Shown piece by piece: positions 12,613 to 57,395 of a stretch of 64,000 nucleotides of DNA (position 1 is the first letter of the stretch; each line of letters opens with the position of its first letter). The position numbers and the translations under genes are program-made. The DNA is from an uncultured Acidobacteriaceae bacterium (GTDB taxonomy: Bacteria; Acidobacteriota; Terriglobia; Terriglobales; Acidobacteriaceae), in NCBI GenBank assembly GCA_963722485.1, contig CAVRNL010000015.1, positions 5,759-69,758 of the forward strand, read 5' to 3'. The notes under the pieces are model-generated. The model was not told where the DNA came from. It worked only from the letters and a program-made list of their open reading frames with translations, and searched no databases.

Positions 12613-13098
12613 ATGTACGCGGTGATCCGCGCAGGTGGAAAGCAGTATCGCGTAGCCCCGGGCGACGTGATTCGAGTCGAGACCCAGGACGACAAGGACG
12701 GCAAGATCGAGTTCGGCGACGTGCTGGCGGTTTCGGCGGAGGCGGGCAGCGTTGTGCCTGCGGGGTCGGGAGCGCTCGTCACCGGCGAAGTGGTCGAGCA
12801 GGGACGCGGCGACAAGATCCTGGTCTTCCACTACAAGCGCAAGAAGCAATACAAGAAGCTGCGCGGACACAGGCAGGACTACACCGCGGTTCGCATCACC
12901 GAGATCGCTTTCGATGGGCAGTCGTTCAAAGCGCCTGAGCTTCCGAAGAAAGAGAAGAAGGTGAAGCCGGCGCACGAGGAAGGCGAAGAAGTGAAGACTT
13001 CGGCGCGGCCCGGCAAAAAGGCGAAGAAGCACGTGGCTCACGCGCACGCCAAGAAATCGGCGCCGAAAAAAGCAGCAGCAAAGAAGAAAAAGAAGTAG
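12613..13098 (+). CDS. rplU: 50S ribosomal protein L21 with Lys-rich C-terminal extension
   Basis: MYAVIRAGGKQYRV N-terminus, with GGAGAG upstream. About 60 extra residues end in KKAAAKKKKK. Confidence 0.95.
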   Translation: MYAVIRAGGKQYRVAPGDVIRVETQDDKDGKIEFGDVLAVSAEAGSVVPAGSGALVTGEVVEQGRGDKILVFHYKRKKQYKKLRGHRQDYTAVRITEIAFDGQSFKAPELPKKEKKVKPAHEEGEEVKTSARPGKKAKKHVAHAHAKKSAPKKAAAKKKKK

Positions 13099-13200: not shown

Positions 13201-13470
13201 ATGGCGCATAAAAAAGGACAAGGCACTTCACGAAACGGGCGCGACTCGAACGCGCAGCGGCTTGGCTTTAAGGCTTTCGGCGGACAACTGGTGCCCGGCG
13301 GCACCATCATCGTCCGCCAGCGCGGCACGCGCGTGAAGCCCGGACTGAACGTTGGACGCGGCAAGGACGACACTCTCTTCGCCAAGATCACGGGCCGCAT
13401 CAAGTTCATCGACAAGGGGTCGATGGGGAAGTTTGTGATGGTCGAGCCCGAGGCTGTCGAAGCGAAGTAG
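13201..13470 (+). CDS. rpmA: 50S ribosomal protein L27
   Basis: [22 protein letters not shown]. Confidence 0.95.
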
Positions 13471-13490
13471 GGCGCGAGCCTTGTTTGTAA

Positions 13491-13517
13491 AGACGGGGCT
13501 TGCCCCGTCTCCTTTTG
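13491..13517 (+). terminator. intrinsic terminator after rpmA (member of the AGACGGGGC hairpin family)
   Basis: AGACGGGG-CTTG-CCCCGTCT followed by CCTTTTGG. Confidence 0.65.
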
Positions 13518-13584
13518 GACACGGCGGGAGACACGGCAAGTCGAAATCTTAGTTCCTCCCGTAGATTCATAGCGGAGGAATTTT

Positions 13585-13887
13585 GTGAAACGTGTCGCGG
13601 CATTCCTTGCTCTTGGTCTTGCATTCATTCTAATGGCCTATGCTGTTCATGGGATTAGCCATACCTATGGTGTTTACAAAAGCAATAGTCCTGACATAAC
13701 ACTTAAAGAACTGCTCGTAGACAACTGTGAACCTCTGCTTGTTGGGTGGGGGCCAGAGAAAGAACGAGTATGTGACACCATTATGGGAGGAGACATTGAA
13801 AATCTTCACCGATATGAAGTCGCAGGAATTTTCGGGGCGTTCTCTCTCATAGGATTCCTACTCCTCTTCCCTCGTCGCTCGGCCTAG
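13585..13887 (+). CDS. small two-TM membrane protein, hypothetical, in a low-GC insert
   Basis: GGAGG lies 7 nt before GTG. Hydrophobic N- and C-terminal helices. Visibly AT-richer than the flanks. Confidence 0.5.
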   Translation: MKRVAAFLALGLAFILMAYAVHGISHTYGVYKSNSPDITLKELLVDNCEPLLVGWGPEKERVCDTIMGGDIENLHRYEVAGIFGAFSLIGFLLLFPRRSA

Positions 13888-14018
13888 CAACCATCAAGAG
13901 CGGTTCGGTGAGCGCTCTCCCAGAAATGAGTCTGAGCATGGGCCAACTGCCCTCAAGCTTTCTAGCGACCTTGAAAACTTTCTGCGTAGTATATAGAAGC
14001 ACGATCATCGTATGAAGC

Positions 14019-14135
14019 GCAGCTTCAGGCTGTAGGACGAGGGTTCGATTCCCTCCCGCTCCACCTATAAACCTAGACGGGGCGGAACTGGTATCGATTG
14101 TGACACTGAAGTGGCGGGGGCGGTTGCCCCTAAGC
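14019..14135 (+). ncRNA. tmRNA-like tRNA domain in permuted order (3' half, 13-nt spacer, 5' half); function unknown, possibly a relic
   Basis: GGAC, then T-arm GAGGG-TTCGATT-CCCTC, then CCGCTCC-ACC (14035-14065). GGGGCGG at 14079-14085 pairs with all 7 nt and gives G3:U70. It is followed by AACTGGTATCGAT, which resembles the 5' end of tmRNA. No tag ORF found. Confidence 0.4.
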
Positions 14136-14202
14136 GAGTTTCGGTGGAGTCGGCCTTTTCGCGGACAGGAGTGTCCGCGCCACACAATCATCTTTCACCG
14201 TC

Positions 14203-15279
14203 ATGTTCATCGATGAAGCCAAAATACGAGTTAAGGCGGGGGACGGCGGCAACGGCTGCATGGCGTTCCGGCGGGAGAAGTTTATTCCACGCGGCGGCCC
14301 TTCGGGCGGCGATGGCGGCCGGGGCGGCGACATCTGGATGGAGTCGAGCGAACGCCACAATACGCTGGTGCATTTCCGTTTCAATCCCGAATATACGGCC
14401 CAACGCGGACGCCACGGCGAGGGCTCGAAAAAAACTGGACGCGATGGCGAAGGGATTGTCCTGAAAGTGCCGGTGGGCACGATCGTTTTCGACGAGGATA
14501 CGGGCGAGAAGGTTCACGATTTTTCGCGCGCCGATGAACGCGTCGTGATCGCGCGCGGCGGACGCGGCGGACGCGGCAACGCGCAGTTTGCCACTTCGAC
14601 GCATCAAGCCCCGCGCGAGCACGAAGAAGGACGTCCCGGCGAAGAACGCCACTTCCGCTTGGAGTTGAAGCTGCTCGCCGATGTGGGGTTGGTGGGATAT
14701 CCGAATGTGGGCAAGTCGACGCTAATCTCGCGCATCTCAGCGGCGCGGCCGAAGATTGCGGATTATCCATTTACCACGCTCGAACCGAACCTCGGTGTGG
14801 TGCTGGCCGGTGGAAAAGGAAAAGACAAGGGGAAAGAAGAGAGTTTCGTGGTCGCCGACATTCCGGGCTTGATCGAAGGCGCGCACGCCGGATCGGGCCT
14901 CGGAACGCAATTCCTGCGGCATATCGAGCGCACGAGGTTGCTGGTGCATATGGTGGATGTCTCCGACAGCAGTGGTCGAGCCGACGTGGTGAAAGACGTC
15001 GACGTGATCCGGGGCGAGCTGGCGAGTTTCGGAGCGGGTCTGGAAAAGAAGCCCACGCTGATGGTCGCGTCCAAGATTGACGTGGCGAATCCGGAAAAGC
15101 TCAAGAAACTGAAGCAGTGGGCGACGCGCAAGAAGCTGAAACTTTATCCGATTTCCGCGGTGACCGGCGAGGGGATCGAGAAGCTGAAGTACGCGATGGC
15201 GGAGGAAGTGGAGAAAGTGCGAAAGGCGCTGGCGGAGGCGCAAGCAGAAGAAACGAAGATCTCTCGCTTCGGCGCTTAG
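14203..15279 (+). CDS. obg: GTPase ObgE/CgtA
   Basis: [27 protein letters not shown], the Gly-rich Obg fold, and G-domain motifs GYPNVGKST and DIPGLIEGA. Confidence 0.95.
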
Positions 15280-37512: not shown

Positions 37513-37606
37513 CCAGCCCCGGCAGGGGCGAGCTACCTTAGCCCCGCGCTTCAGCGCGGGGTGGGCTCGGAAAAACCGGCGCAGTCCCGGAGGGACGACC
37601 CAGTTC
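37513..37606 (+). repeat. about 94-nt dispersed repeat, copy 1
   Basis: About 80% identical by eye to 57303-57395 in the same orientation. Contains CCCCGCGC-TTCA-GCGCGGGG and GTCCCGGAGGGACGACCC. Confidence 0.8.
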
Positions 37607-57302: not shown

Positions 57303-57395
57303 CCAGCCCCGCAGGGGCGAACCAGCTTAGCCCAGCGCTTCAGCGCTGGGACAGGCCCAAAAAGCGATTCAAGTCCCGGAGGGACGACCCGGTTC
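57303..57395 (+). repeat. about 94-nt dispersed repeat, copy 2
   Basis: Matches 37513-37606. It is preceded by a perfect 17-bp tandem duplication, GAAATGTCATCCGGAAC x2, at 57255-57288. Confidence 0.8.

Follow-up and report, generated by a model that had tools for sequence, protein, structure and literature searches.

Circularly permuted ssrA genes, which encode the two-piece tmRNAs (Rfam RF04321 and RF01850), begin with an acceptor piece that is followed by a short intervening sequence and then by the 5′ acceptor strand of the coding piece. Tandem duplication is thought to be the route by which such permuted genes arise. In Rfam 15 the permuted tmRNA genes were merged into a single model, RF04321 (tmRNA_permuted), that is limited to the tRNA-like domain (PMC11915505). 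Two-piece ssrA genes on phages, as well as ssrA fragments in prophages, have been documented (PMC9004378), and tag-less permuted tmRNAs (RF02544) exist in the mitochondria of jakobids and others (PMC11915505). Partial ssrA sequences accompanied by foreign DNA are also found at the att sites of islands and prophages or in phages (PMC9004378, PMC11915505). Fragments of the att type are 3′-terminal, and on their flanks lie an island that carries an integrase and a direct repeat of the target. In the Acidobacteriota standard ssrA is the norm, and a survey of 2144 genomes of this phylum lists 1589 standard genes, no alpha-type genes and five ‘beta-type’ permuted genes (PMC11915505, supplementary table 2).

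Here we describe an element from a soil member of the Acidobacteriota that has the order of parts of two-piece tmRNA and shares with it the GGAC and T arm, G3:U70, A73, a tmRNA-type D-loop (CTGGTNTCGA), a hairpin within the acceptor piece and the motif GTATGAAGC, which is common to the permuted genes L089, L094 and L199. The element differs from two-piece tmRNA in that it has no complete PK1, resume codon, tag ORF or 3′ helices, scores about half as high as genuine genes, and occurs, without conservation in relatives, in a phylum where standard ssrA is the norm. Like the mitochondrial tag-less tmRNAs it is permuted, tRNA-like and devoid of a tag frame, whereas those are conserved organellar genes and the element is a single-species insertion with an internal breakpoint. 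Like the att-type fragments it is a partial ssrA together with foreign DNA, but it has both acceptor strands, in permuted order, and no integrase, island or repeat. Its mimic of an acceptor and T arm could be cleaved in the manner of the tRNA-like RNase P signals found in transcripts, with the predicted difference that, the strands being permuted, cleavage would leave a small piece paired to the 5′ end of the mRNA. We think it probable that the element is a relic, truncated at its 3′ end, of a permuted ssrA that was acquired horizontally and may have been phage-borne.

A tmRNA-type tRNA-like domain in permuted order between rpmA and obg

The DNA that we analysed, referred to here as the window, is a stretch of 64,000 nt from an uncultured Acidobacteriaceae bacterium (GCA_963722485.1, contig CAVRNL010000015.1, positions 5,759–69,758 of the forward strand). 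The features of the locus are as follows.

12613–13098, + strand: rplU (ORF list of the window)
13201–13470, + strand: rpmA (ribosomal protein L27), native upstream gene (ORF; Pfam Ribosomal_L27 on the identical gene of L082; homologous in relatives)
13492–13516, + strand: terminator-like hairpin GACGGGGC-TT-GCCCCGTC, then TCCTTTT; native, common to L004
13533 to about 14112/14133, no strand: lineage-specific foreign block (blastn, shuffle-controlled alignments, GC, absence from relatives)
13585–13887, + strand: 100-aa orphan ORF inside the rpmA–obg spacer (ORF list)
14007–14124, + strand: the flagged permuted tmRNA element (RF04321 match)
14007–14065, + strand: acceptor-piece-like segment (RF04321 alignment, upstream motif, GGAC; without native counterpart)
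14066–14078, + strand: intervening sequence of 13 nt (read from the window)
14079–14112, + strand: start of the coding piece, possibly partly native leader, the junction being uncertain (RF04321 alignment)
14113–14202, + strand: probable native obg leader (homology to the leaders of L001, L005 and L006)
14203–15279, + strand: obg (GTPase), native downstream gene (ORF; Pfam GTP1_OBG on an identical gene; 74–93% identical in 80 relatives)

Elsewhere in the window, two matches to the Acido-Lenti-1 RNA exceed its gathering score of 37 (57305–57350 on the − strand at 54.6 bits, and 37515–37561 on the − strand at 42.7 bits) and are consistent with an acidobacterial origin of the window.

Positions 14035–14065 read GGAC-GAGGG-TTCGATT-CCCTC-CCGCTCC-A-CC. 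The parts of the tRNA-like domain, read from the window unless another source is given, are these.

14010–14018, + strand: GTATGAAGC motif (RF04321-aligned segment, comparison with permuted genes)
14013–14027, + strand: hairpin TGAAGC-GCA-GCTTCA
14023–14028 and 14106–14111, + strand: candidate P2 strands CTTCAG and CTGAAG
14035–14038, + strand: GGAC preceding the T stem
14039–14055, + strand: T arm GAGGG/TTCGATT/CCCTC, perfect (5/5 pairs)
14056–14062, + strand: acceptor 3′ strand CCGCTCC
14063, + strand: discriminator A
14064–14065, + strand: CC, the terminal A not being encoded
14066–14078, + strand: 13-nt spacer TATAAACCTAGAC
14079–14085, + strand: acceptor 5′ strand GGGGCGG, pairing 7/7 with CCGCTCC and giving G3:U70
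14086–14098, + strand: D-loop-like AACTGGTATCGAT
14099–14112, + strand: P2a-like TGTGACACTGAAGT (RF04321 alignment)
14116–14133, + strand: GGGGGCGGTTGCCCCTAA

What the initial annotation had said at the level of single bases about the T arm, the acceptor strands, their spacing and G3:U70 is correct throughout when read against the window. In the minimum free energy (MFE) fold predicted for 13990–14200, the T arm and acceptor stem arise unaided (z = −2.4). The predicted P2 is weak, with 12 of the 14 pairs modelled in the RF04321 alignment formed, several of them G-U. The hairpin at 14013–14027 had been seen as a competitor of P2, an objection that loses its force given that counterpart hairpins are normal at the same place in beta-type acceptor pieces. 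The GGAC is invariant in 15/15 genuine permuted genes and was absent from the search pattern used to collect those genes. In the D-loop-like region the element has TCGAT where 15/15 genuine genes have TCGAC, a single change at a free invariant position; judged by its sequence, the D-loop is of the tmRNA type, unlike that of a tRNA. The intervening sequence of 13 nt compares with 5–68 nt in genuine permuted genes.

A family model recognizes a permuted but truncated domain

RF04321 matched 14007–14124 at 54.6 bits, above its gathering score of 47 (E = 7e-8 for the 64-kb window), in agreement with the earlier proposal of a tmRNA-type tRNA-like domain in permuted order. The match spans model positions 2–132 of 213 only, and positions 133–213 are unmatched. 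A permuted-order pattern consisting of a T loop, an acceptor 3′ strand, 5–35 nt, and GGGG-N6-TGGTNTCGA had one match in the window and none in 100 shuffles. Taken with the unaided MFE fold, the RF04321 score and the comparison with shuffles indicate that the permuted arrangement is beyond chance.

As a calibration set we took 20 IMG/VR viral contigs that match the permuted-order pattern, and all 20 matches proved to be permuted ssrA genes on viral contigs. ARAGORN reported a two-piece tmRNA with an ...AA tag in 19/20 of these control loci, the 20th of which ends at the contig end, and it also called a permuted tmRNA with a tag in L199. In a control subset of 12 genuine permuted genes, RF04321 scored 84–172 bits over positions 1–213, and beta_tmRNA (RF01850) scored 94–299 bits in 11/12, L100 not being listed for beta_tmRNA. 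For the element, beta_tmRNA was the best-matching sub-model, at 47.9 bits against a gathering score of 84, with 21 nt standing for 95 tag-region positions of the model. RF04321 thus bore out the assignment, and beta_tmRNA, a model that runs from the promoter through the acceptor and coding pieces to the terminal hairpin, stayed below its gathering score. RF02544 was not listed for the element at E ≤ 10, which carries little weight since overlapping, lower-scoring members of the clan are hidden in that listing.

Run on the window, ARAGORN called no tRNA and no tmRNA by default and no tmRNA at relaxed thresholds; a ‘tRNA-SeC’ call at 13996–14065 under relaxed thresholds was dismissed as a threshold artefact. 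Downstream of the element the three frames contain SGGGGCP*, a read-through into obg and a long spurious ORF, and thus no tag ORF. Both results agree with the caveat, entered at the time of the initial annotation, that no tag ORF with an ..AA stop could be found. The model of standard tmRNA, RF00023, had no match in 13400–14800 at E ≤ 10. The beta_tmRNA model aligned TTGAAA-N17-TAGAAG as a promoter of the element, yet a consensus scan called no sigma-70-type promoter on the + strand, and we do not regard a promoter of the element's own as established.

The permuted tRNA-like domain is therefore present and truncated. Measured against RF04321, the element has the score and the tRNA-like domain of the family, with TCGAT for TCGAC as its one deviation; a complete coding piece with a resume codon and an ...AA tag ORF is missing, as is conservation as ssrA in related organisms, the element being absent from this locus in 80/80 relatives. 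By these sequence features the element is not a complete or working ssrA. We also rejected a tRNA-Ala gene or pseudogene: ARAGORN found no tRNA by default, GGAC rather than GGTC precedes the T stem, and the D-loop is of the tmRNA type, all of which accords with the original view that this is not a plain tRNA.

The element lies in a foreign block confined to one lineage

We compared the locus with the obg loci of the 80 closest species-level genomes (Obg 74–93% identical), all of which are Terriglobales, either Acidobacteriaceae or Ca. Sulfotelmatobacter MAGs. In 0/80 of these relatives did we find a T-loop motif within 4 kb of the obg locus, an ARAGORN match at that locus, or blastn similarity to 13541–14133, and the Rfam models gave no tmRNA signal at E ≤ 10 in the seven closest relatives. 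The conservation in related genomes on which the initial annotation would have relied is thus lacking at this locus in 80/80 closest relatives, and by that annotation's own criterion this absence counts against a functional RNA of the lineage.

The rpmA–obg spacer is 733 nt long here and typically 85–250 nt in the relatives. In shuffle-controlled alignments, 13471–13540 is homologous to the spacer of L004 (z = 13); native homology runs to about 13532 (L004) and resumes from 14134 (L005, L006). The left junction accordingly lies at about 13533, and the intervening block of ~600 nt stands in place of ~130 nt of native spacer, with which the rpmA terminator seen in relatives has gone. The terminator-like hairpin at 13492–13516 was not called by a consensus terminator scan. 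The block has a GC content of 0.485, compared with 0.596 for the window; its composition is foreign, and it is confined to one lineage. No integrase or island lies near this block of only ~600 nt, whose neighbours are housekeeping genes, and no meaningful direct repeats flank it. When the block was compared by blastn with phages and plasmids, only the ~35-nt core of T arm and acceptor was matched.

Several JGI and ENA samples yielded a total of 13 contigs with an identical Obg. In the five of these that were retrieved, which are independently assembled strain-level contigs, the block is 100% identical, with zero polymorphism across the five. The element is therefore real, an assembly artefact being ruled out by five identical independent contigs.

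The block also contains the orphan ORF, which the initial annotation had passed over. This 100-aa ORF has hydrophobic N and C termini and a GTG start, with GGAGGA, a strong ribosome-binding site, 6 nt ahead of it, and it is called as a (predicted) gene in the JGI annotation. The only homologue found among 5.8 billion clusters and 1.84 billion representatives was a 99%-identical self-match, and neither Pfam nor PHROGs gave a match. Its GC3 is 0.41, against 0.72–0.78 in the neighbouring genes.

Other genomes carry other insertions at this site. About a dozen relatives have unrelated insertions in the rpmA–obg spacer, with spacers of 520–980 nt (L002, L003, L008, L010, L014, L016, L022, L027, L046, L052, L061 and L065). 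An opposite-strand ORF of 165–264 aa is common to the spacers of L010, L014, L016, L022, L027 and L052, and differing small ORFs occupy those of L002, L003, L008, L046, L061 and L065. Judged by its sequence in these relatives, the rpmA–obg spacer is a variable spot, and a hot spot for lineage-specific insertions.

The right junction and the native obg leader

The right-hand limit of the block bears on how much of a coding piece is left. Positions 14134–14202 align with the leaders of L005 and L006 (z = 11.7 and 27.3, respectively). Upstream of this, 14113–14135 is collinear with the leader of L001 (z = 3.8, 0/1000 shuffles), reading GGGGGCGGTTGCCCCTAAG here and GCCGAGGGCGGCTGTCCCTACG in L001, and contains a hairpin, GGGGC-GGTT-GCCCC, at 14116–14130. 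This segment (GGGGCGGTTGCCCC), which had been compared with the PK1 region of tmRNA, is thus probably native obg leader and not tmRNA-derived. For 14079–14112 the similarity to the native leader of L006 (z = 2.7, 15/1000 shuffles) is suggestive only. In the same collinear test, 14035–14078 had no native counterpart in the leaders of the closest clade, and neither GGG at 14079–14081 nor the 13-nt spacer has one.

From these alignments we place the right junction somewhere between about 14081 and 14134, its exact point being uncertain. It follows from these limits that at most 34–55 nt of the putative coding piece would survive, compared with about 240 nt, including the tag, in genuine genes. 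We considered whether the entire 5′ half might be native leader. The segment tests spoke against this; the collinear test then marked 14113–14135 as native and 14079–14112 as suggestive, and we keep the suggestive overlap in 14079–14112 as an uncertainty of the junction and not as our main reading.

Further downstream, at 14160–14185, lies a conserved hairpin, CGCGGACAGGAGTGTCCGCG, with CCACAC. The beta_tmRNA alignment took this hairpin for the terminal hairpin of tmRNA, an assignment that we rejected, as it is a native element conserved in 17 relatives. It belongs to a family of the form CGCGGRC-N4-7-GYCCGCG, usually followed by CCACAC, that is found in L005, L006, L028, L064 and 13 further relatives, shows one covarying G:C/A:T pair and has no Rfam match. 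Most relatives have the hairpin ~20 nt after rpmA, ahead of the terminator, and L005, L006 and the window have it 17–20 nt ahead of obg. It may be an undescribed cis-element of the rpmA–obg operon. The closest clade (L001, L005, L006 and L007, with 14113–14135 in the window) also has an obg-leader module in which GCGGAGC-TTCG-GCTCCGC is followed by a GAGGGC-loop hairpin, whose loop is conserved while its stems vary by genome (AGCC/GGCT, GGAC/GTCC, GGGC/GCCC); these stem differences look like covariation.

Donor type and possible vehicle

The 3′ half of the element is not diagnostic by itself: its terminal 24-mer recurs exactly as the end of a phage tRNA-Ala(TGC), and the 31-mer as the end of many standard tmRNA genes. 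These matches are what one would expect of an att-type remnant, in which an integrative element had left the 3′ end of a standard ssrA or tRNA-Ala, so that the T arm and acceptor 3′ strand would be the only foreign parts and GGGGCGG...CTGGTATCGA a coincidental stretch of native leader. The native character of 14113–14135 and the resemblance of 14079–14112 to the L006 leader fit this explanation too. The sequence ahead of the T arm does not. The motif GTATGAAGC lies 16 nt ahead of GGAC, at the same offset as in the genuine permuted genes L089, L094 and L199, and at this offset it occurs in 3/17 unique permuted genes and in 0/29 unique upstream regions of standard tmRNA. At the sequence level, then, the upstream half of the element bears the signature of a permuted gene. 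This specificity indicates that the element is not merely a duplicated 3′ end of a standard ssrA, nor a fragment of tRNA-Ala, in which GGTC and not GGAC would precede the T stem. Moreover, GGG at 14079–14081 and the 13-nt spacer are without native counterpart, and it is very unlikely that chance would bring together a 7/7 acceptor match and, correctly spaced, a D-loop-like consensus (0/100 shuffles). No integrase, island or direct repeat of the target adjoins the element, which also tells against the old integration site that had been among the first suggestions. We consider an att-type remnant very unlikely.

A permuted-type tmRNA origin, by contrast with these 3′-end matches, is indicated by the GGAC, the tmRNA-type D-loop and GTATGAAGC at the offset of permuted genes. 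L091 and L094 align unbroken with the element from its T arm through the intervening sequence into the 5′ strand. Identity to any permuted gene found is 50–65% outside the universally conserved core, and there was no close donor among the viral-contig and listed metagenome matches examined. Such a permuted arrangement could also have come about by rearrangement of the host's standard ssrA, if the junction of a tandem duplication (the 3′ end of copy 1, a spacer and the 5′ end of copy 2) had later been moved into the rpmA–obg spacer. This is the textbook route for the origin of permuted genes; it would nevertheless need more steps than the transfer of an already permuted piece, and it does not sit well with the foreign composition of the block and the accompanying orphan ORF, with the lack of a standard tmRNA body upstream of the element (RF00023, 13400–14800, E ≤ 10), or with an upstream motif that matches permuted and not standard genes. 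We hold it to be very unlikely.

Searches of metagenomes and viral contigs bear on the donor. A metagenome search with the tmRNA-type 31-mer yielded at least 119 matches; of those listed, all except L199 are standard one-piece tmRNA 3′ ends, mostly from one clade, and the host's own ssrA is not among them. Many of the standard tmRNA 3′ ends in the listed loci L107–L225 are no more than about 100 nt away from the end of their contig, as expected if assemblies break at integrated variable islands near ssrA. In viral contigs a pattern with the same acceptor as the element had 0 matches. A pattern of the form GGGGCGG-N4-GGTNTCGA-NNG proved too loose in viral contigs, with 120 chance matches and 0 tmRNA genes, and was discarded. 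Because two-piece ssrA genes are frequent on phage contigs, phages are a plausible vehicle.

A probable relic and its possible co-option

‘Relic’ is the one that we favour among the four options offered by the initial annotation. We envisage that the 5′ portion of a circularly permuted ssrA would have arrived horizontally, together with the orphan ORF, as a block of ~600 nt, and that this block would have replaced part of the variable rpmA–obg spacer in one Terriglobales (Acidobacteriota) species. The donor would have been a beta-type-like permuted gene, plausibly phage-borne. Surviving parts would comprise the whole acceptor piece, the intervening sequence of 13 nt and no more than the initial 34–55 nt of the coding piece. 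As the recombination junction would fall within the latter, the remainder of PK1 would be missing, and with it the resume codon, the tag ORF and the 3′ helices. Microhomology between the 5′ end of the tmRNA and the native leader may have guided the junction. Tagging by trans-translation would not be possible for such a relic, which would be redundant with a standard ssrA that we assume the host to have, from the norm of the phylum. If transcribed, the intact tRNA-like fold might still be cut by RNase P at G14079, and a residual role as a tRNA-like processing site could be envisaged on sequence grounds.

Some features are less readily expected of a relic. The near-unblemished tRNA-like core could reflect either recent arrival or selection, all five strain-level contigs that were compared carry the element in fixed and invariant form, and its position in the obg leader, together with the displaced terminator, could allow co-option. 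Accordingly, we weighed a co-opted, functional, tag-less tRNA-like element in the obg leader, transcribed with or ahead of obg. Such an element might be cut by RNase P at G14079 and trimmed after A14063-CC, defining the 5′ end of obg mRNA; it might uncouple obg mRNA from rplU–rpmA; or, alanylated, it might join SmpB in rescuing ribosomes without a tag, as has been proposed for the tmRNA of mitochondria. Everything that RNase P and AlaRS recognize is intact (the acceptor stem of 7 bp with its G3:U70, the A73 and the T arm, which is canonical), the tRNA-like fold forms spontaneously in the MFE prediction, the block replaces the native rpmA terminator and sits in the obg leader, the sequence is invariant in the five contigs, and mitochondria provide a precedent for permuted tmRNAs lacking a tag (PMC11915505). 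Against this, the element is confined to a single species and is dispensable in 80/80 relatives; the five contigs, being identical, give no measure of constraint; the consensus scan called no promoter of the sigma-70 type on the + strand; the P2 is weak (12/14 modelled pairs, several G-U); an invariant C has become T in the D-loop-like region; and a breakpoint inside the gene looks accidental and not designed. We regard a functional element of this kind as unlikely. To a co-opted relic, whose two-strand domain in the obg leader would be cut by RNase P and might also carry alanine, acting as a processing switch or a tag-less mini-tmRNA, we give, from its sequence, a slighter chance still.

Returning to the relic that we favour, its confinement to one species leaves knowledge of trans-translation unchanged. 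The consequences for annotation are practical. Because the element passes the RF04321 gathering score, automatic annotation would record a tmRNA gene here, in a phylum of one-piece ssrA; a truncated, tag-less fragment of this kind ought to be entered as a partial gene or a pseudogene. The element also suggests that permuted ssrA sequences cross phyla and can enter core operons of ribosomal proteins and obg, and it offers a natural test case for whether an isolated tRNA-like domain of tmRNA in an mRNA leader is processed. Were co-option true, the element would provide the essential GTPase Obg with a processing switch that mimics a tRNA, or would be a bacterial tag-less mini-tmRNA like that of mitochondria.

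A one-piece tag-less candidate on a viral contig

Separately from the rpmA–obg locus, we observed a one-piece, tag-less, tmRNA-type tRNA-like candidate of ~66 nt on the viral contig IMGVR_UViG_3300007960_000095 (L296, 873–940, + strand). The candidate, which ARAGORN left uncalled and of which Rfam recognized only the T-loop part (tmRNA, 10.9 bits, E = 0.023), combines GGGGCGG, a GGTGTCGA D-loop, a P2 closed by a hairpin, a T arm and ACGCTCCAC.
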